From a virus: 26,053 nt of DNA. Positions 3,696 through 23,820 of the stretch are shown here, piece after piece; position 1 is the stretch's first letter, and each line of letters begins with the position of its first letter. The notes under the pieces were generated by a model, which searched no databases, was not told where the DNA came from, and saw only the letters and a list, made by a program, of their open reading frames with translations. Both the position numbers and the translations under genes were made by a program. Where the stretch lies: the UHGV virus genome UHGV-0219829; one strand, 5' to 3'.

Positions 3696-5961
3696 AGCCT
3701 CCGGGCGTTTTGTCCCTCCGTCAGCATTTGCCGCAGGCACCGGTGAGACGTTTACCGGTGCTTATGCATGGAACGCGCCACGCGAGGCCGTCGGGCGCGA
3801 AAGACCCCTTACACGTGACGAGATGCGTCAGGTGCAAGGTGTTTTATCCACGATTAATCGCCTGCCTTACTTTTTGCGCTCGCTGTTTACTTCACGCTAT
3901 GACTACATCCGGCGCAATAAAAGCCCGGTGCACGGGTTTTATTTCCTCACATCCACTTTTCAGCGCCGTTTATGGCCGCGTATTGAGCGCGTGAATCAGC
4001 GCCATGAAATGAACACCGACGCGTCGTTGCTGTTTCTGGCAGAGCGTGACCATTATGCGCGTCTGCCGGGGATGAATGACAAGGAGCTGAAAAAGTTTGC
4101 CGCCCGTATCTCATCGCAGCTTTTCATGATGTATGAGGAACTCTGCGATGCATGGGTTGATGCACATGGCGAGAAAGAATCGCTGTTTACAGATGAGGCG
4201 CAGGCGCATCTGTATGGTCATGTTGCTGGCGCTGCACGTGCTTTCAATATTTCCCCTCTCTACTGGAAAAAATACCGTAAAGGACAGATGACCACGAGGC
4301 AGGCATATTCTGCCATTGCCCGTCTGTTTAACGATGAGTGGTGGACTCATCAGCTTAAAGGCCAGCGTATGCGCTGGCATGAGGCGTTACTGATTGCTGT
4401 CGGGGAGGTCAATAAAGACCGTTCTCCTTATGCCAGTAAACATGCCATTCGTGATGTGCGTGCACGCCGCCAGGCAAATCTGGAATTTCTTAAATCGTGT
4501 GACCTCGAAAACAGGGAAACCGGCGAGCGCATCGACCTTATCAGTAAGGTGATGGGCAGTATTTCTAATCCTGAAATTCGCCGGATGGAGCTGATGAACA
4601 CCATCGCCGGTATTGAGCGTTACGCCGCCGCAGAGGGTGATGTGGGGATGTTTATCACTCTGACCGCGCCGTCAAAGTATCACCCGACACGTCAGGTCGG
4701 AAAAGGCGAAAGTAAAACCGTCCAGCTAAATCACGGCTGGAATGATGAGGCATTTAATCCAAAGGATGCGCAGCGTTATCTCTGCCGCATCTGGAGCCTG
4801 ATGCGCACGGCATTCAAGGATAATGATTTACAGGTCTACGGTTTGCGAGTCGTCGAGCCACACCACGACGGAACGCCGCACTGGCATATGATGCTTTTTT
4901 GTAATCCACGCCAGCGTAACCAGATTATCGAAATCATGCGTCGCTATGCGCTCAAAGAGGATGGTGACGAAAGAGGAGCCGCGCGAAACCGTTTTCAGGC
5001 AAAACACCTTAACCGGGGCGGTGCTGCGGGATATATCGCGAAATACATCTCAAAAAACATCGATGGCTATGCACTGGATGGTCAGCTCGATAACGATACC
5101 GGCAGGCCGCTGAAAGACACTGCCGCGGCTGTTACCGCATGGGCGTCAACGTGGCGCATTCCGCAATTTAAAACGGTTGGCCTGCCGACAATGGGGGCTT
5201 ACCGTGAACTACGCAAATTGCCTCGCGGCGTCAGCATTGCTGATGAGTTTGACGAACGCGTCGAGGCTGCACGCGCTGCCGCAGACAGTGGTGATTTTGC
5301 GTTGTATATCAGCGCGCAGGGTGGGGCAAATGTTCCGCGCGATTGTCAGACTGTCAGGGTTGCCCGTAGTCCGTCGGATGAAGTTAACGAGTACGAGGAA
5401 GAAGTCGAGAGAGTGGTCGGCATTTACGCGCCGCATCTCGGCGCGCGTCATATTCATATCACCAGAACGACGGACTGGCGCATTGTTCCGAAAGTGCCGG
5501 TCGTTGAGCCTTTGACTTTAAAAAGCGGCATCGCCGCGCCTCGGAGTCCTGTCAATAACTGTGGAAAGCTCACCGGTGGTGATACTTCGTTACCAGCTCC
5601 CACACCTTCTGAGCACGCCGCAGCAGTGCTTAATCTGGTTGATGACGGTGTCATCGAATGGAATGACCCGGAGGTCGTGAGGGCGCTCAGAGGTGCATTA
5701 AAACATGGCCTGAGAACACCAAATCGCCAGCAAAGAAACGGAAGCCCGTTAAAACCGCATGAAATGGCACCATCGGCCAGACTGACCCGGTCGGAACGAA
5801 TGCAAATTACCCGTATCCGCGTTGACCTTGCTCAGAACGGTATCAGGCCGCAGCGATGGGAGCTTGAGGCGCTGGCGCGTGGGGCAACCGTAAATTATGA
5901 CGGGAAAAAATTCACGTATCCGGTCGCTAATGAGTGGTCGGTTTTTTCAATTAAACAATAA
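3685..5961 (+). CDS. A: Rolling-circle replication initiator protein A (HUH endonuclease)
   Basis: About 758 aa from ATG 3685 (the track start at 3643 is TTG). Contains an HUH motif (TPHWHMMLF) and a downstream paired-tyrosine motif (GYIAKYISK), both seen directly. Position and size match P2 gpA. Confidence 0.9.
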   Translation: MAVKASGRFVPPSAFAAGTGETFTGAYAWNAPREAVGRERPLTRDEMRQVQGVLSTINRLPYFLRSLFTSRYDYIRRNKSPVHGFYFLTSTFQRRLWPRIERVNQRHEMNTDASLLFLAERDHYARLPGMNDKELKKFAARISSQLFMMYEELCDAWVDAHGEKESLFTDEAQAHLYGHVAGAARAFNISPLYWKKYRKGQMTTRQAYSAIARLFNDEWWTHQLKGQRMRWHEALLIAVGEVNKDRSPYASKHAIRDVRARRQANLEFLKSCDLENRETGERIDLISKVMGSISNPEIRRMELMNTIAGIERYAAAEGDVGMFITLTAPSKYHPTRQVGKGESKTVQLNHGWNDEAFNPKDAQRYLCRIWSLMRTAFKDNDLQVYGLRVVEPHHDGTPHWHMMLFCNPRQRNQIIEIMRRYALKEDGDERGAARNRFQAKHLNRGGAAGYIAKYISKNIDGYALDGQLDNDTGRPLKDTAAAVTAWASTWRIPQFKTVGLPTMGAYRELRKLPRGVSIADEFDERVEAARAAADSGDFALYISAQGGANVPRDCQTVRVARSPSDEVNEYEEEVERVVGIYAPHLGARHIHITRTTDWRIVPKVPVVEPLTLKSGIAAPRSPVNNCGKLTGGDTSLPAPTPSEHAAAVLNLVDDGVIEWNDPEVVRALRGALKHGLRTPNRQQRNGSPLKPHEMAPSARLTRSERMQITRIRVDLAQNGIRPQRWELEALARGATVNYDGKKFTYPVANEWSVFSIKQ

Positions 5962-6132
5962 TGACTACTACTGCAGTGTTGTGGGAATGTTATAGTGTTT
6001 GTGGGATTTTTCTATGAAAAACAATGAATTAATCTGTTTTTCATATTGAGCTAATTTTTTATGGCCACAGTTGTTAAAAAGTGAGAACATAATCTTGTTC
6101 AAAACCTGCTTCTATATACGGAGGCTTTCGCT

Positions 6133-6159
6133 ATAATACGCGGTCGGTTTTAGGAGGGG
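6133..6159 (+). promoter_or_regulatory. Putative promoter -10 (TATAAT at 6133-6138) and strong Shine-Dalgarno (AGGAGGGG at 6152-6159) for the methyltransferase gene
   Basis: Seen directly in the AT-rich spacer after gene A. The -35 element is weak, so promoter strength is uncertain. Confidence 0.45.
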
Positions 6160-6162
6160 ATA

Positions 6163-7107
6163 ATGCCAACAGTAGTTTCACTTTTTTCTGGATGCGGTGG
6201 TTCCGATGCGGGGGTTTTGAGAGCCGGCTTTGATGTGCTTATGGCCAACGATATCTTGCCGTATGCGCGCGATGTTTATATTGCCAATCATCCAGAAACT
6301 GATTACATATTAGGCAATATTGCTGATGTAACTACTTTTCCTAAATCTGATTTGCTGGTAGGTTGTTATCCATGTCAGGGATTCAGCCAGGGTGGTGCGC
6401 GTAAAGCCGATCGAAAAATTAATACTCTTTATTTAGAGTTTGCTAGAGCTTTAAACAATATAAAGCCTAAAGCTTTTATAGTAGAAAACGTGTCTGGTAT
6501 GGTTAGAAAAAATTTTGAGCATTTGTTATCTGACCAGATCAGGGTTTTTACTGAAGCAGGTTATACTGTTTCCGCAAAAGTTTTAAATGCGGCTGAATAT
6601 GGAGTAGCGCAGGAAAGAAAAAGAATATTTATCGTAGGAATCCGTAATGATTTCAAAGTTAAGTACGAGTTCCCTCAGCCAACTCATGGGCCAGCAACTG
6701 GCGTCAACTATGTTACTATTAAAGATGCTATAGGGCATTTACCTGAATGGCCAGAAGGTGAATTTTATGATATGGGATTCCATTGGTATTATATGTCTCG
6801 CAATCGTCGCCAGGATTGGGATCAAATTTCAAAGACAATAGTTGCTAATGCAAGGCATATGCCGTTGCATCCTGTCAGTCCTCCGATGGAGAAAGTAAGA
6901 ACTGATGAATGGAGATTTGTTGAGGATCGGAGAGCTCGCAGATTCAGTTTTCGAGAGGCAGCACTATTACAAGGGTTTGAGGATCTAGTGTTTCCAGAAA
7001 CAAATGCTGCAAGTCTTGGCATGAAATACACGGTGGTTGGTAATGCAGTGCCTCCGCCGCTTTTTGAAGCTGTAACGAAGGCATTGCCAATAGAATTATG
7101 GGATTGA
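6163..7107 (+). CDS. DNA (cytosine-5)-methyltransferase (Dcm-type C5-MTase)
   Basis: 314-aa ORF carrying the full canonical C5-MTase motif set: motif I FSGCGG, motif IV PCQGFS (catalytic Cys), motif VI ENV, motif VIII QERKR, motif IX REAALLQGF, motif X GNAVPPPL. Confidence 0.9.
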   Translation: MPTVVSLFSGCGGSDAGVLRAGFDVLMANDILPYARDVYIANHPETDYILGNIADVTTFPKSDLLVGCYPCQGFSQGGARKADRKINTLYLEFARALNNIKPKAFIVENVSGMVRKNFEHLLSDQIRVFTEAGYTVSAKVLNAAEYGVAQERKRIFIVGIRNDFKVKYEFPQPTHGPATGVNYVTIKDAIGHLPEWPEGEFYDMGFHWYYMSRNRRQDWDQISKTIVANARHMPLHPVSPPMEKVRTDEWRFVEDRRARRFSFREAALLQGFEDLVFPETNAASLGMKYTVVGNAVPPPLFEAVTKALPIELWD

Positions 7108-7114
7108 TAAGCTA

Positions 7115-8104
7115 TTAAGGCTCTGGATTTAATGTATAAAGCTCTTCCTCAAATTCGCGAAACCAATCAGAGGTAGTTATCGCTTCCCATTGGTTTGCCT
7201 TATCAAGTAGATATATGATTCTCAACCTATCTAATAATAATACCCCAGCGGTTGCGTGTGTGCTTACCCATTCGCCATTTGCTTCCCGATAGAAAACAGG
7301 CGTGAACATTGTTGATGGATGCTGGAACGCAATTTGGAAATAGGTGGTCAGTTTTAACACGTTAGCCTCTAATGTTTTGCTTGGCCACCCTGTTTCTTGT
7401 GCGCCACATTGACCAAGAATTCCATAGTTGCTAGTTTGACCATCAGGAAATTCCACTGTAGCAATTAGGTCAAACCCGGCATCACCAGATGTGGGAGCTC
7501 TATTTATTTCCCTTGTGTTTAAACTACAAACTCCAAGATCTTTTCCTAAAGTTTGTAGAGCTGTCCGAAGATTTGTTCCATAATAATTTTGCCTATCATC
7601 GGAGTTAGCATCAAAAATTCTTACGGTGCCATGTGCAGGTAAGAGAGAAATCATTGCTACTTTACATACTCTGGCAAAGCTCTTTGCCCAACGTTGTGCT
7701 GCTCCTTTAATCGACTTAAAGGATCTAAGTCTAGAGCAGCAAAGAAGAAAAACATATATTCGTTGTTGTTGGTTTAGATTTTCTTTAATAATTATCTCAT
7801 CACCTGAAATTATAAATGGATATATTTTGCCAAGAGCACTTTCTCTATATTCGAGTTGTGTCCAAACATCTTCGAGTTGCTCTTCAAAACGATCATTTCT
7901 CTCAGCGTCTCCATTAATTTCTTCTTCAGAATTACATTCTTCATCAATTTCTTCAACGCTTGTTATGCCGAATTTTCTTACTGAATCTAAATCATTTTTA
8001 TGTAGTGAGTTACGTCCGGTATAATTAATTACCGTGAGTAACTCGGCTAAATCTGCAAACAAATGAGGAGAGTTGGGATGCATAACTCCTACTTCAAAAG
8101 TCAT
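7115..8104 (-). CDS. Hypothetical protein, partner of the ParB-like protein; function unknown (candidate defence effector)
   Basis: About 329-aa ORF. ATG starts at 8107/8104 lie just downstream of a GAGG, and the gene overlaps the upstream gene's stop, suggesting translational coupling. Its stop is 7 nt from the convergent MTase stop. Low GC. I recognised no confident motif. Confidence 0.65.
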   Translation of the reverse strand: MTFEVGVMHPNSPHLFADLAELLTVINYTGRNSLHKNDLDSVRKFGITSVEEIDEECNSEEEINGDAERNDRFEEQLEDVWTQLEYRESALGKIYPFIISGDEIIIKENLNQQQRIYVFLLCCSRLRSFKSIKGAAQRWAKSFARVCKVAMISLLPAHGTVRIFDANSDDRQNYYGTNLRTALQTLGKDLGVCSLNTREINRAPTSGDAGFDLIATVEFPDGQTSNYGILGQCGAQETGWPSKTLEANVLKLTTYFQIAFQHPSTMFTPVFYREANGEWVSTHATAGVLLLDRLRIIYLLDKANQWEAITTSDWFREFEEELYTLNPEP

Positions 8105-9215
8105 CATCACCTCTGCTATTTTTCTCTGCTATTTCAGAACCTATAAGCTTAATATGTTTATTGATTCTTCGTGCTACTTCATGGGCCTGTCTATCATACT
8201 CTACCGTGGCAACCATGCCTGCTGCATCTATCAAAGCTGCTTCAACTTGATAAAGTAACTGGAGAAAGTCCTTAGTAATATCAGATGTCAATTGATAGGC
8301 AACTGCGAGTGGAGCCCCCATTCGGAATTGCTCCAATGCCTTAGGGCTACTTACAACAGCAGCTAGTTCTCTTAAATTACGTGATTCTCCTACACGAGTT
8401 TTTTTATCCTCGCCTTTTTTATATAACCATTCAGTTAGTTCTTTTATTTCTTTGTTCTTTAAACTCTTAGAATTGATGATAGGATGACTTGGTATTGTGT
8501 CTCCATCGTCTTCGATTGAAACTCCGACAAACTGGCCTAACCGCTCATCAGCAAGTGCTGTTGATAATACTGAAAATTTAATCGTTTCTTCATCTAGCTT
8601 TTCAATACCATAAAAATCATTTTTTTTAATGATTTCATACACCGCTAAAGCGTCTAGGTTACGCTTGATATGATCCCTACGACTGCCAATAGCTCTGGCA
8701 ACCTCATAGTAGCGTAGCATTGGATCCAGATTTGCATTGGTATAATCAAAAAGCTGTTTAATATATCGAGCTTTTGATAAGGGTTCCCATTGTTTGACAC
8801 CAGTAATATGTCTGAAACCAAGGTACGGAAGAATCTCTTCTCTTGTTTGGCGCTCAATGACAGGAACACGATCGACCGTATGTTTTGCATTTGATGCAAT
8901 TTCTCGTAGTCGAGCACTTGGATTTTCACATAGTGTCGGATCGCGTAATAATTTGACCGCGGATAGGCGACGGTTTCCTTCAACTACAATGTACTTCCCC
9001 GGCGCTCCACTATCAGGAATGACAATCAATGGTTCTCCAGGGAAAAAACCATTTTCCGCAATAGCACTCATTAGGTCTTCGATAGATGTTGAGGTTGCTA
9101 TGTAGTTAATCATTCCCAATTGGTCACGAGACACGCCTTCAGGAAGTCTTGGGTTTTCTGTGTCAAGTTCCAAATCATCTAGCGGAACATAAAGTATTTC
9201 TGAATCAGCAATCAT
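8094..9215 (-). CDS. ParB/Srx-like N-terminal domain protein (ParB-like nuclease/NTP-binding fold) with probable HTH; candidate defence component
   Basis: About 373 aa from ATG 9215, which has a GGAG Shine-Dalgarno 6 nt upstream (the track start 9254 is TTG). ParB box-like motifs are seen directly: LDDLELDTENPR and IVVEGNRRLSAVK (GxRR arginine finger-like). Confidence 0.7.
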   Translation of the reverse strand: MIADSEILYVPLDDLELDTENPRLPEGVSRDQLGMINYIATSTSIEDLMSAIAENGFFPGEPLIVIPDSGAPGKYIVVEGNRRLSAVKLLRDPTLCENPSARLREIASNAKHTVDRVPVIERQTREEILPYLGFRHITGVKQWEPLSKARYIKQLFDYTNANLDPMLRYYEVARAIGSRRDHIKRNLDALAVYEIIKKNDFYGIEKLDEETIKFSVLSTALADERLGQFVGVSIEDDGDTIPSHPIINSKSLKNKEIKELTEWLYKKGEDKKTRVGESRNLRELAAVVSSPKALEQFRMGAPLAVAYQLTSDITKDFLQLLYQVEAALIDAAGMVATVEYDRQAHEVARRINKHIKLIGSEIAEKNSRGDDDF

Positions 9216-9441
9216 CTGGATCTCCGTTGAACATGTCCACGAGAAGGAGCACAAAGTTATTTCATAACATGCAATATACTCATTCTGTAGCCATAAATGA
9301 ATTATTCATGATGTAAGATTCGCGTTGATGTGCGTGAATTCGCAAGTAATTATACAGCAAGGTTTGATTGGGTATCGTCAGCACCAGTGCGGTTCCAACG
9401 TACTCATGCAACTGCATTAAAACCGCCCCATGAAGCGGGCG

Positions 9442-9460
9442 GGCGAGGCGGGGAAAGCAC
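9442..9460. other. cos: cos cohesive-end site (GGCGAGGCGGGGAAAGCAC) for terminase cleavage/packaging
   Basis: The 19-mer matches the P2 cohesive end as I recall it (from memory, not verified). It lies in the non-coding region just upstream of portal gene Q, where cos sits in P2. Confidence 0.6.
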
Positions 9461-9629: not shown

Positions 9630-10664
9630 TCAGCCGTTGTCAGTGTCCAGTGAGTAGTTTTTAAAGCGGATGACCTCCTGGCCGAGCCAGCCGTTTATCT
9701 CGCGGATCCTGTCCTGTAACGGGATAAGCTCATTGCGGACAAAGACCTTTGCCACTTTCTCAATATCACCCAGCGACCCGACGTTCTCCGGCTTGCCGCC
9801 CATCAACTGAAAAGGGATGCGGTGCGCGTCCAGCAGGTCTGCGGCGCTGGCTTTTTTGATATTAAAAAAATCGTCCTTCGTTGCCACTTCACTGAGCGGG
9901 ATAATTTTAATGCCGTCGGCTTTCCCCTGTGGGGCATAGAGAAACAGATTTTTAAAGTTGTTGCGGCCTTTCGACTTAACCATGTTTTCGCGAAGCATTT
10001 CGATATCGTTGCGATCCTGCACGGCATCAGTGACGTACATGATGTATCCGGCATGTGCTCCATTTTCGTAATACTTGCGGCGGAACAGCGTGGCCGACTC
10101 ATTCAGCCAGGCAGAGTTAAGGGCGCTGAGATATTCCGGCAGGCCGTACAGCTCCTGATTAATATCCGGCTCCAGCAGGTGAAACACGGAGCCGGGCGCG
10201 AAGGCTGTCGGCTCGTTGAAGGACGGCACCCACCAGTAAACATCCTCTTCCACACCACGGCGGGTATATTTTGCCGGTGAGGTTTCCAGTCTGATGACCT
10301 TACCGGTAGTGCTGTAACGCTTTTCCAGAAACGCATTACCGAACACCAGAAAATCCAGCACAAAGCGGCTGAAATCCTGCTGGGAAAGCCACGGATGCGG
10401 GATAAATGTCGAGGCCAGAATATTACGTTTGACGTAAATCGGTGAGCTGTGATGCACGGCAGCACGCAGGCTTTTTGCCAGACCGGTAAAGCTGACCGGT
10501 GGCTCATACCATCTGCCGTTACTGATGCACTCGACGTAATCCAGAATGTCACGGCGGTCGAGTACCGGCACCGGCTCGCCAAAGGTGAATGCTTCCATTT
10601 TCGGGGCGCTGGCGGTCATTTTTTTTGCCGCAGGTTGCGGTGTTTTCCCTTTTTTCTTGCTCAT
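9630..10664 (-). CDS. Q: Portal protein (gpQ)
   Basis: 344-aa ORF, the same size as P2 gpQ. Its ATG overlaps the P stop (ATGA). Lysine-rich N-terminus. Confidence 0.9.
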   Translation of the reverse strand: MSKKKGKTPQPAAKKMTASAPKMEAFTFGEPVPVLDRRDILDYVECISNGRWYEPPVSFTGLAKSLRAAVHHSSPIYVKRNILASTFIPHPWLSQQDFSRFVLDFLVFGNAFLEKRYSTTGKVIRLETSPAKYTRRGVEEDVYWWVPSFNEPTAFAPGSVFHLLEPDINQELYGLPEYLSALNSAWLNESATLFRRKYYENGAHAGYIMYVTDAVQDRNDIEMLRENMVKSKGRNNFKNLFLYAPQGKADGIKIIPLSEVATKDDFFNIKKASAADLLDAHRIPFQLMGGKPENVGSLGDIEKVAKVFVRNELIPLQDRIREINGWLGQEVIRFKNYSLDTDNG

Positions 10665-21368: not shown

Positions 21369-22942
21369 CAGTGAAATACTACGCCATTCTGACTAATCAG
21401 GGCGCAGCACGGCTGGCTAACGCGACGATGCTCGGCAGTAAGCTGAATCTGACGCAAATGGCCGTTGGTGATGCGAATGGTGTCTTGCCGACACCAGACC
21501 CGGCACAGACAAAACTGATTAACCAGAAACGCATCGCGCCGCTGAATCTTCTGAGTGTTGACCCGAACAACCAGAGCCAGATTATTGCGGAGCAAATCAT
21601 CCCTGAGAACGAGGGCGGATTCTGGATCCGTGAGATTGGGCTTTATGATGATGAAGGCGTACTCATTGCGGTGGCGAATTGCCCGGAAACGTACAAACCG
21701 CAGTTGCAGGAAGGCAGTGGTCGTACCCAGACTATCCGCATGATTCTGGTTGTCACGAATACCGAAGCCATCACGCTGAAAATTGACCCGTCGGTGGTAC
21801 TGGCAACACGCAAATATGTGGATGACAAAATTTCTGAGCACGAACAGTCACGACGCCACCCGGACGCCTCGCTGACCGCAAAAGGTTTTACTCAGTTAAG
21901 CAGTGCAACCAACAGCACATCTGAAACAATGGCCGCAACACCGAAAGCGGTTAAGGCAGCGTACGACCTTGCTAACGGAAAATATACCGCTCAGGACGCT
22001 ACTACGGCACGAAAAGGCCTTGTTCAACTCAGTAGCGCCACAAACAGCACGTCTGAAACGCTGGCTGCAACGCCAAAAGCTGTTAAGACGGTAATGGATG
22101 AAGCGAACAAAAAAGCGCCATTAAACAGCCCGGCGCTGACCGGAACGCCAACAACGCCAACTGCGCCAAAGGGTACTAATAATACTCAGATAGCAAGCAC
22201 GGCTTATGTTATGGCTGCGATTGCTGCGCTTGTAGACTCGTCGCCTGACGCACTTAACACGCTGAACGAACTGGCCGCCGCGCTTGGTAATGATCCAAAT
22301 TTTGCGACCACCATGACTAACGCGCTCGCGGGCAAGCAACCGAAGGATGCCACCCTGACGGCGCTGGCAGGACTGTCTACATCAGCCGATAAACTCCCTT
22401 ATTTTACAGGGGCAGATCGTGCCGCGTTAACTGCACTGACAAGTGTTGGGCGTACCATTCTTGGTAAAACCAGCACTCAGGGAGTTCTTGATTACCTTGG
22501 TTTGGGAGAAGGCTCTGCATTGCCTGTTGGTGTACCAATTCCGTGGCCTTCTGCAACACCACCAGGCGGTTGGCTAAAATGCAATGGCGCAACTTTTGAC
22601 AAAGCGAAATATCCTCAGCTTGCAAAGGTATACCCTACCGGGAAATTACCTGATTTGCGTGGCGTGTTTATTCGTGGCTGGGATGATGGACGGGGAATTG
22701 ATACCAGTCGTGCTCTACTTTCAGAGCAGCAACCTAAAGTTGGTCAGTTCTGGGCAAGAGGAACAACATATACCGTAAGTCCTGGCAGTATCTATATAAC
22801 CGATGCGATTTCAATAGGACAATCACCATCCAGTGTTGCGGTAAATAACGATTCCGGCGCATCGGAAAATTACGTTGAAGTAACCCCTGTTGATACCAGA
22901 CCTATCAACAATGCGTTTAACTATATCGTGAGGGCTGCGTAA
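21365..22942 (+). CDS. H: Tail fibre protein (gpH) with an internal tandem protein repeat and a probably exchanged C-terminal receptor-binding region
   Basis: 525-aa ORF. Seen directly: repeated block QLSSATNSTSET[M/L]AATPKAVK (about nt 21893-21957 and 22025-22087). Shorter than P2 gpH (669 aa as I recall). Confidence 0.85.
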   Translation: MTVKYYAILTNQGAARLANATMLGSKLNLTQMAVGDANGVLPTPDPAQTKLINQKRIAPLNLLSVDPNNQSQIIAEQIIPENEGGFWIREIGLYDDEGVLIAVANCPETYKPQLQEGSGRTQTIRMILVVTNTEAITLKIDPSVVLATRKYVDDKISEHEQSRRHPDASLTAKGFTQLSSATNSTSETMAATPKAVKAAYDLANGKYTAQDATTARKGLVQLSSATNSTSETLAATPKAVKTVMDEANKKAPLNSPALTGTPTTPTAPKGTNNTQIASTAYVMAAIAALVDSSPDALNTLNELAAALGNDPNFATTMTNALAGKQPKDATLTALAGLSTSADKLPYFTGADRAALTALTSVGRTILGKTSTQGVLDYLGLGEGSALPVGVPIPWPSATPPGGWLKCNGATFDKAKYPQLAKVYPTGKLPDLRGVFIRGWDDGRGIDTSRALLSEQQPKVGQFWARGTTYTVSPGSIYITDAISIGQSPSSVAVNNDSGASENYVEVTPVDTRPINNAFNYIVRAA

Positions 22943-23544
22943 TGAATACAGCGGTTTTAAATAGTAGCTTTATTGCAATAGAGGCTGGGGATATTACAGT
23001 TTATAACTATGATGGCGAGACGCGGGAATATATTTCCACATCAACTGAATATCTTGCTGCTGGTGTCGGTATCCCGGCATGTTCTTGTTTAGATGCACCA
23101 GGCACACATAAGGCTGGCTATACAATCTGCCGCTCATCGGATTTTAACTCATGGGAATATGTGCCAGACCATCGCGGTGAAATCGTCTATAACACCGAAA
23201 CGGGTGACGCCAAAGAAATCACAGCACCGGGCGACTATCCTGAAAACACAACCACTATCGCCCCGTTAACGCCATACGATAAATGGGATGGTGAGAAATG
23301 GGTGACAGACACTGAGGCACAACACAGTGCCGCAGTAGAAGCGGCAGAAGCACAGCGCCAGTCACTGATTGATGCTGCTATGGCTTCCATTAGTCTGATT
23401 CAGTTGAAATTGCAGGCCGGGCGCAAACTGACGCAAACAGAAACAACCCGACTTAACGCTGTGCTGGATTACATTGACGCGGTGACAGCAACAGATACCA
23501 GCACAGCGCCGGATGTTATCTGGCCTGAACTGCCGGAGGCGTAG
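22942..23544 (+). CDS. G: Tail fibre assembly chaperone (gpG)
   Basis: 200-aa ORF; its ATG overlaps the H stop (TAATG). Confidence 0.8.
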   Translation: MNTAVLNSSFIAIEAGDITVYNYDGETREYISTSTEYLAAGVGIPACSCLDAPGTHKAGYTICRSSDFNSWEYVPDHRGEIVYNTETGDAKEITAPGDYPENTTTIAPLTPYDKWDGEKWVTDTEAQHSAAVEAAEAQRQSLIDAAMASISLIQLKLQAGRKLTQTETTRLNAVLDYIDAVTATDTSTAPDVIWPELPEA

Positions 23545-23555
23545 GTCATTCAATA

Positions 23556-23597
23556 TCTGGAGCACTGGAAATATCGACCAGTTCCAGTGCGTCCAGA
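23556..23597. repeat. Long imperfect inverted repeat (TCTGGAGCACTGGAA ... TTCCAGTGCgTCCAGA) downstream of G
   Basis: Seen directly: perfect 8-bp core stem CACTGGAA/TTCCAGTG (23563-23570 and 23582-23589) with an 11-nt loop, extendable to about 15 bp with one bulge. No following T-run. Confidence 0.5.
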
Positions 23598-23820
23598 TAA
23601 TCGAGTGAGAGGGAACAGACAGGACGGTTGCTGGTTGTGGGGGAATCACGTCAACGTGTGGCGCTGATTTTTGATATTGGCCTGTCCACGCTCTATAAAA
23701 ATCCCCCTCATCAGCGACAAAGAATAAATTGTGTCATCCCTTAGCCAACCGGGATAAATAGCCTGACATCTCCGACACACATGAAAATACCACTCACCCA
23801 TTAACCACGGAGTTAAACGG

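Follow-up and report, generated by a model that had tools for sequence, protein, structure and literature searches.

PD-λ-5 is a validated two-gene defence system of ECOR7, listed by Vassallo et al. (2022) as "ParB/HEPN, methyltransferase" (PMC9519451) and described by its authors as a compacted prophage form of restriction-modification (RM) plus abortive infection ("RM+Abi"), the cloning of which needed an mrr deletion strain (PMC9519451). ParB-superfamily domains also serve as nucleoside triphosphate (NTP)-binding sensors in GmrSD, SspE and BrxU (PMC12065111). Here we describe a three-gene cassette related to PD-λ-5, located in an island at positions 5962-9441 of the virus genome UHGV-0219829, all 26,053 nucleotides of which were analysed and are referred to as the window. 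The cassette encodes a C5-cytosine DNA methyltransferase (MTase), a ParB-like protein, and a third protein, open reading frame (ORF)-B, that contains a nuclease-fold domain. We put at about even the chance that these constitute an RM-like anti-phage cassette, in which the MTase would mark self DNA, the ParB-like protein would act in sensing or loading, and ORF-B would cleave unmarked DNA.

The slot between gene A and cos in P2 is a validated defence hotspot (PMC9519451, PMC9122126), and genomic copies of the cassette adjoin genes for a Type I S subunit, GmrSD, Mrr, Uma2 and ResIII. In view of this hotspot and these defence-island neighbours, the homology to validated defence, the endonuclease fold of the partner protein and the tightly linked methylase, we judge from sequence that a defence role is very likely. 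The trio itself (WP_001143636, WP_000142509 and WP_000559725) accounts for at least 98 entries in the available part of Table S5A of Rousset et al. 2022, where it is labelled "DNA_methylase + hypothetical + ParBc" and assigned to the P2 gpA-gpQ hotspot (PMC9122126), and there is no sign of it among the cloned systems in the available portion of that paper. The arrangement is thus already catalogued, and the literature searched does not appear to describe how ORF-B folds, how the cassette relates to PD-λ-5 or how widely the family is distributed. The features of the locus are as follows.

5962-6162, plus strand: AT-rich leader and MTase promoter region, GC 0.353, following the gene A hairpin
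6163-7107, plus strand: C5-cytosine DNA methyltransferase, HaeIII-like, 314 amino acids (aa), WP_001143636.1
7115-8104, minus strand: ORF-B, 329 aa, WP_000142509.1, putative effector with a winged helix and a nuclease-fold domain
8094-9215, minus strand: ParB-like protein, 373 aa, WP_000559725.1, putative sensor or loader
8094-8104, minus strand: 11-nt overlap of the ParB-like stop and the ORF-B start, from the coordinates
9216-9441, minus strand: upstream region of the ParB-like/ORF-B operon, presumed to hold its promoter
9442-9460, plus strand: P2 cos cohesive-end sequence, the right boundary of the hotspot, outside the system

The cassette resembles PD-λ-5 in being prophage-borne and in linking a ParB-N/helix-turn-helix (HTH) protein to a DNA methyltransferase, and the ParB parts are homologous. 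The original prediction could match the combination to no named system, a statement that has to be withdrawn, as the ParB-like protein matches 25 PADLOC PD-Lambda-5_A models and the trio had been tabulated (PMC9122126). The best of these matches (E=6.6e-29) aligns ParB-like residues 22-295 with model positions 7-277 of 440, and an hhalign comparison with the true PD-λ-5_A of Marinobacter phage AS1 gives a probability of 98.8%, over residues 7-200 only. The PD-λ-5-type locus of AS1 encodes an A protein of 486 aa and a B protein of 331 aa. There are three differences: PD-λ-5_A is about 440-500 aa long with a C-terminal HEPN part that the ParB-like protein lacks; PD-λ-5_B is a D12-class N6-adenine MTase (PF02086), whereas the cassette MTase is a C5 enzyme (PF00145); and ORF-B, a DNase-fold protein that matches no PADLOC model, is encoded by an additional gene of the cassette. 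The B proteins of AS1 and of Vibrio phage ValB1MD-2 match PD-Lambda-5_B (E=4e-103 and 2e-118) and are of the D12 class (PF02086), and PD-Lambda-5_B is not among the best 25 of the 63 PADLOC matches of the cassette MTase (down to E=8e-27). We rejected membership of PD-λ-5, since the cassette has neither a full-length A protein with HEPN nor a D12-class B protein. It is instead most likely a sibling, in which the HEPN part is exchanged for a separate DNase and the Dam-like N6-adenine methylase for a C5 methylase. In ValB1MD-2 (L057, 2947-5386) a PD-λ-5-type A is itself split into a ParB-N protein of 252 aa and a C-terminal protein of 265 aa, followed by a Dam-like MTase, a natural precedent for separation of sensor and effector.

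The ParB-like protein has no match in Pfam, and NCBIfam gives just a sub-threshold parB_part match (TIGR00180, 32.8 bits against a cut-off of 58.45). Fold comparison identified a ParB/KorB N-domain, an HTH and a C-terminal helical domain, and no HEPN fold was seen in this comparison; the protein is thus of the ParB/KorB type without the HEPN part of PD-λ-5_A. The Box II arginines in "EGNRR" are invariant in the family and align with the "GERR" of ParB (the GxRR box), while the Rx4H-like "RRINKH" is not conserved. There is no Pfam match to GmrSD_N (DUF262), and the motif is EGNRR rather than DGQQR; the protein is of the canonical ParB/KorB type and not DUF262. The family is large, with 327 clusters at 50% identity having E <= 1e-30, and some RefSeq homologues are named "partition protein". 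With its ParB fold, arginine box, HTH and dimerisation-like helical C-terminal domain the protein is similar to the ParB/KorB CTPase clamps, from which it differs in having no ParA, parS or KorA and in being coupled to a nuclease and a methylase; clamping is a prediction. No ParA-like ORF is present in the island, palindromic and direct repeats there do not go beyond short chance matches and so give no parS-like array, and the N-terminus of the protein has no ParA-interaction motif. We rejected a partition system on the lack of ParA and of a parS-like array, the nuclease fold of the partner, and the genomic copies in defence islands; the possibility raised by the original prediction, that homology might place the minus-strand pair in plasmid partition, was not borne out. 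A "putative plasmid partitioning system" reported in P2 hotspots is, in the available part of Rousset et al., StbA + Plasmid_stab_B, another arrangement (PMC9122126).

Two further observations concern the ParB-like protein. Its C-terminus (window 8094-8108) is a conserved acidic tail ending in ...DDDF, resembling the C-terminal tips of SSB and T7 gp2.5. The terminal Phe is kept across the subfamily found in the window to about 45% identity, and distant branches retain the acidity only; an SSB-like acidic Phe tail was rejected as a family-wide feature, since those branches lack the terminal Phe. The protein also matches positions 59-341 of PDC-M38A (PDLC04607, 715 positions; E=1.3e-20), an unvalidated PADLOC candidate about as long as the ParB-like protein and ORF-B together, which ORF-B does not match.

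The single ORF-B sequence matched nothing in Pfam, NCBIfam, PADLOC or PDB sequences; only the family profile and a predicted structure were informative. ORF-B is a member of phrog_3984 ("unknown function"), and its homologues, in at least 273 clusters at the 90% identity level, are uniformly "hypothetical" and carry no Pfam domain. The AlphaFold model, built from a 41-sequence alignment (predicted local distance difference test score, pLDDT, 86.6; predicted template modelling score, pTM, 0.87), has MspJI as its top Foldseek match (E=9.6e-3, probability 0.95), and a 31-member family profile has one match among PDB sequences, also MspJI (E=0.0059); by three methods MspJI is the best nuclease match. 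The profile aligns "SGDgGlD...lgQC" of ORF-B with "SGDGGVD334...GQ355AK357" of MspJI, such that D212 and Q232 correspond to MspJI D334 and Q355. MspJI is inactivated by D334A and by Q355A, and the Mrr superfamily is recognised by the signature D...(Q/E)xK (PMC2938202). Even among ORF-B family members with about 25% identity D208, D212 and Q232 are invariant; Gly or Ala stands where (Q/E)xK has its Lys, and just downstream, in a segment modelled with low confidence, K243 is nearly invariant and E246 mostly conserved. Pfam Mrr_cat is found in one of the 31 family members (E=0.043). The original prediction recognised no motif in this 329-aa protein, and a winged helix and an Mrr/MspJI-like PD-(D/E)xK core can now be assigned. 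ORF-B is best described as having Mrr-like architecture, with the predicted winged helix followed by the Mrr/MspJI-type core and a non-canonical active site, and is a putative nuclease.

As in Mrr and MspJI, an N-terminal DNA-binding domain (winged-helix or other) thus precedes a C-terminal Mrr-like PD-(D/E)xK core; the differences are the change of Lys to Gly or Ala, the lack of an SRA-like reader of 5-methylcytosine (m5C), and the obligate ParB-like partner. Neither the ParB-like protein nor ORF-B was found to contain an SRA or other modified-base reader domain, one of the Type IV features looked for. Residues 231-250 of ORF-B (window 7357-7416, GQCGAQETGWPxKTLEA) form its most conserved segment; confidence in the model is lowest here (pLDDT about 63), which suggests a loop ordered only upon binding of DNA or a partner, and this loop may be the source of the missing catalytic Lys, as K243.

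The MTase matches PF00145 (E=5.5e-65) over model positions 2-322 of 324 and scores 192 bits with TIGR00675 (cut-off 100.65), and its translation shows FSGCGG, PCQ (Cys71), ENV and GNAVPP, a complete set of catalytic motifs. It had been described as Dcm-type, which is not supported: the closest solved relative is M.HaeIII, matched over its full length (E=1.4e-48), and with the Dcm subfamily model it reaches only 38 bits where 710 are required. On both grounds we refer to it as HaeIII-like. Counts of GGCC, GCGC and other sites in the window were uninformative as to its specificity. The MTase also matches the PADLOC DruM2 models (E=1.1e-113), raising the possibility of Druantia type II, in which a DruM-like C5-MTase accompanies the DruE helicase and DruF/DruG; the island lacks a large helicase and other Dru genes, and Druantia II was dropped for this reason despite the match. 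An m5C methylase would expose cloned DNA to McrBC and Mrr in standard laboratory strains.

To define how these genes are associated we used a genomic set of 45 ORF-B loci on contigs taken from one genome per species, and a viral set of 59 contigs. The ParB-like and ORF-B genes are adjacent in all 101 informative loci, from several phyla, with the ParB-like gene directly upstream wherever upstream DNA is available (43/43 genomic and 58/58 viral loci), and their overlap or close abutment recurs. Every informative viral locus (55/55) has a C5-MTase gene no more than 1.5 kb away, and about 27 of the 36 genomic loci that are informative have an adjacent one, in at least four layouts (convergent downstream, co-directional upstream, co-directional downstream and divergent upstream). 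No N6 MTase is the sole MTase at any locus examined. In about 9 of the 36 genomic loci the pair has no adjacent C5-MTase, with ORF-B motifs intact, and the neighbours there include a Type I S subunit with an AAA ATPase, GmrSD with an Mrr_cat enzyme, Uma2, and a ResIII helicase. That the three genes travel together, a point on which the original prediction was to be checked, is supported by this linkage and by their occurrence in unrelated mobile elements.

The 3.46-kb island is present at >=95% identity in 48 of 5,426 complete E. coli genomes (~0.9%), always on the chromosome, and the Peduovirus HQ103, a Yersinia phage, has it at 99.9% identity. Isolated P2-like phages that carry the cassette are HQ103, vB_EcoM-12474 and Wφ, and the mobile elements in which it occurs range from Proteobacteria to Actinomycetota and Bacteroidota. 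In Pseudomonas nitroreducens and Burkholderia vietnamiensis, integrase-flanked elements with distant ORF-B homologues have the same layout, with a 372-aa protein, an overlapping protein of about 330 aa, and a convergent C5-MTase. The gp98-gp96-Mth genes of Wφ share both the layout and the P2 slot, and the trio is present also in the Pseudomonas Citexvirus vB_PaeM-D14A; these constitute a deeply diverged branch (ParB-like 34%, ORF-B 25% with E=5e-24, MTase 76%) for which we found no characterisation. The MTase is 64-77% identical in branches where the ParB-like protein is about 30% and ORF-B about 25% identical, the pattern expected, judging from these sequences, for a conserved marker with fast-evolving sensor and effector genes. 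Neither a 2025 survey of ParB CTPases (PMC12704722) nor the Menshen analysis (PMC12065111) includes the ParB-like family.

Some individual loci depart from the usual organisation. A 1037-aa N6_Mtase-domain protein (L048, 6948-10061) and a 310-aa HNH_2 endonuclease (L014, 6997-7929) are each inserted between ORF-B and the C5-MTase, and may be accessory or stacked restriction functions. In one of the genomic loci without an adjacent C5-MTase (L018, 3283-5104) an IS605-family TnpB element occupies the usual MTase position, and the ORF-B next to it alone in the close family has E246A, perhaps an inactivation that compensates. Yersinia phage L-413C (L008, 207-1199) has in this slot only a truncated ParB-like ORF (62% identical, 79% coverage) and, lacking ORF-B and MTase, looks like a decayed cassette.

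The island occupies the A-cos (tin/old) slot of P2 exactly as anticipated, with gene A ending at 5961 and an exact 19/19 match at 9442-9460 to the 19-nt P2 cos sequence (no matches in 100 shuffles). The three genes were likewise correctly placed, with 7 nt (7108-7114) separating the MTase and ORF-B stop codons and with overlapping minus-strand genes, and the 11-nt overlap suggests translational coupling of the ParB-like protein and ORF-B. Both starts are those of the RefSeq ATG codons, and upstream codons would give 331 aa (GTG) for ORF-B and 386 aa (TTG) for the ParB-like protein. The GC content of the island is 0.399 (39.9%), against 0.539 (53.9%) in the rest of the window and 0.532 in gene A, and this foreign composition counts in favour of cargo. 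The island had been described as AT-richer, as it is, but the accompanying value of about 70% for the terminase reflects the extreme of a range: 60-nt windows span 0.23-0.55 in the island and 0.43-0.68 in the terminase gene, where the mean is 0.57. Beyond cos are the portal gene (9630-10664) and the terminase gene, both on the minus strand.

A terminator-like hairpin of gene A is located at 5920-5941, and a terminator scan found none between the convergent MTase and ORF-B genes. Read directly, the leader contains TATAAT at 6131-6136 and AGGAGG 7 nt 5' of the MTase ATG, and a minus-strand TATAAT is present at about 9346-9351 upstream of the ParB-like/ORF-B operon; the promoter scan was at chance level (8 promoter-like sites, 9.4 expected), with none outstanding in 9216-9441. 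Just 5' of the MTase promoter region is a tandem direct repeat at 5979-6014, TTGTGGGAATGTTATA / TTGTGGGATTTTTCTA, with 20-nt spacing and the shared form TTGTGGGA(A/T)T at 5979 and 5999; it may serve as an operator or have arisen by chance. GATC sites are concentrated in the island, which has 13 of the 23 in the window within 3.5 kb, the other 22.6 kb having 10. GGWCC (2) and GGNCC (5) are very rare in the window, and the P2 backbone looks depleted while the island does not. Z/fun, the second P2 defence hotspot, separates the tail-fibre assembly gene G from the sheath gene FI; it corresponds to 23545-23820 and appears to be only about 276 nt long and empty, its flanking genes being identified by P2 gene order and ORF size only. 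GC dips also occur at 22400-23200 (to 0.44; tail-fibre C-terminus and assembly genes) and at 1400-1800 (to 0.39; integrase/immunity region), and mosaic exchange would explain both.

In the RM-like mechanism that we favour, the HaeIII-like MTase would place m5C on resident DNA, the ParB-like protein would bind or load on DNA as an NTP-gated sensor and form a complex with ORF-B, the pair being translationally coupled, and ORF-B would be the effector that cleaves DNA without the m5C mark of the cassette. The gene content, folds, homologies and linkage are those described above, and from them we infer anti-phage and nuclease activity, NTP dependence, the complex and protection by methylation. So read, the cassette would follow the logic of RM, supplemented by a ParB-fold component, which fits the theme of ParB-superfamily sensors with nucleases (PMC12065111). 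It is similar to convergent Type II RM loci in having an active-looking C5-MTase tail-to-tail with a PD-(D/E)xK-fold protein on mobile DNA of low GC, but differs in that a ParB-like third component is always present, the nuclease site is non-canonical, and about a quarter of genomic loci have no MTase. In GmrSD, SspE, BrxU and the Menshen protein NsnA (ParB-DUF262), as proposed here, a ParB-superfamily sensor and a DNA-binding domain are combined with a nuclease effector (PMC12065111), but in the cassette the effector is a separate protein and a C5-MTase is linked. Several points weigh against an RM-like function: the two partner families, ParB-superfamily and Mrr-like, are those usually seen in modification-dependent (Type IV) enzymes, MspJI too is encoded beside a C5-MTase (PMC2938202), the genomic loci without an MTase indicate that it is not strictly required in cis, and literature searches by accession number and keyword found no test of the trio. 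A more specific form, to which we give tentative and clearly less than even credence, is that the ParB-like protein is an NTP-gated clamp of the ParB/KorB type recruited as the reader of a restriction system; it would load on DNA or slide along it, m5C would exclude or switch it, and it would license the separate Mrr-like nuclease with its non-canonical active site.

The main rival is that the ParB-like protein and ORF-B form a split modification-dependent enzyme of the GmrSD/Mrr kind, directed against modified phage DNA; the MTase would then be independent phage cargo with an anti-restriction or epigenetic role, and the pair would not act on its product. The closest relatives of ORF-B are Mrr/MspJI-type modification-dependent nucleases, GmrSD, SspE and BrxU have ParB-superfamily sensors (PMC12065111), the MTase neighbour of MspJI is a parallel (PMC2938202), and one of the approximately nine MTase-less pairs has GmrSD and an Mrr_cat enzyme as neighbours. 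We nonetheless think this unlikely: neither protein has a detected SRA or modified-base reader, the ParB-like protein is canonical ParB/KorB and not DUF262, and linkage to the C5-MTase (viral loci, 55/55; genomic loci, about 27/36) takes varied layouts, often with overlapping stop codons, which is hard to explain without functional coupling. That linkage, together with the strong conservation of the MTase relative to its partners, would also suit a licensing arrangement, in which host m5C is read by the ParB-like protein and needed to position or activate the complex, as phosphorothioate is for SspE, the marks then not simply blocking cleavage. SspABCD-SspE, where self modification stimulates a ParB-superfamily sensor, is the precedent (PMC12065111), but MTase-less loci exist and m5C reading by either protein would be by analogy only, and we consider licensing improbable.

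The missing canonical Lys of D...(Q/E)xK and the winged-helix DNA-binding domain of ORF-B could alternatively mean that the roles are reversed, with ORF-B a dead pseudo-nuclease providing DNA recognition and the ParB-like protein an NTP-dependent nuclease or nickase, as reported for some ParB/Srx-fold proteins (Osa, the ParB-N of pNOB8). The conservation of D208, D212 and Q232, and nearly so of K243, across relatives with about 25% identity argues for a live, if non-canonical, active site in ORF-B, and the PD-λ-5 relatives have a dedicated effector domain besides ParB-N, which suggests that ParB-N is not the effector; a reversal of roles seems to us improbable. Least probable is that the cassette is not for defence, the pair being a KorB/ParB-like regulator or prophage maintenance module and the methylase an orphan epigenetic enzyme, even with the ParB/KorB-like architecture and HTH and the "partition protein" names in RefSeq. 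P2 integrates and does not need a partition system; ParA, a parS-like array and an N-terminal ParA-interaction motif are lacking, the obligate partner has a restriction-endonuclease fold, and the pair resides in chromosomal defence islands as well as in a validated defence hotspot. The StbA + Plasmid_stab_B partition candidate of Rousset et al. is, moreover, a different arrangement.

The cassette is a credible and tractable candidate for a new defence family, although not surprising in kind. Defence-finding tools would overlook it, as only one of the three genes matches a PADLOC system-specific model, and the system concerned needs a different second gene. If the ParB-fold protein is a methylation-sensitive, NTP-gated clamp that licenses a nuclease, the cassette would be considerably more interesting, representing a new NTP-dependent class of RM in which scanning by a cytidine triphosphate (CTP) switch replaces ATP-driven translocation, with PD-λ-5 as its RNase-armed sibling. 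If active, it would add a defence family, provide a function for the large "hypothetical" ORF-B family, and offer a tractable E. coli model of ParB-fold NTP switches in immunity, linking PD-λ-5, GmrSD/SspE and Menshen.

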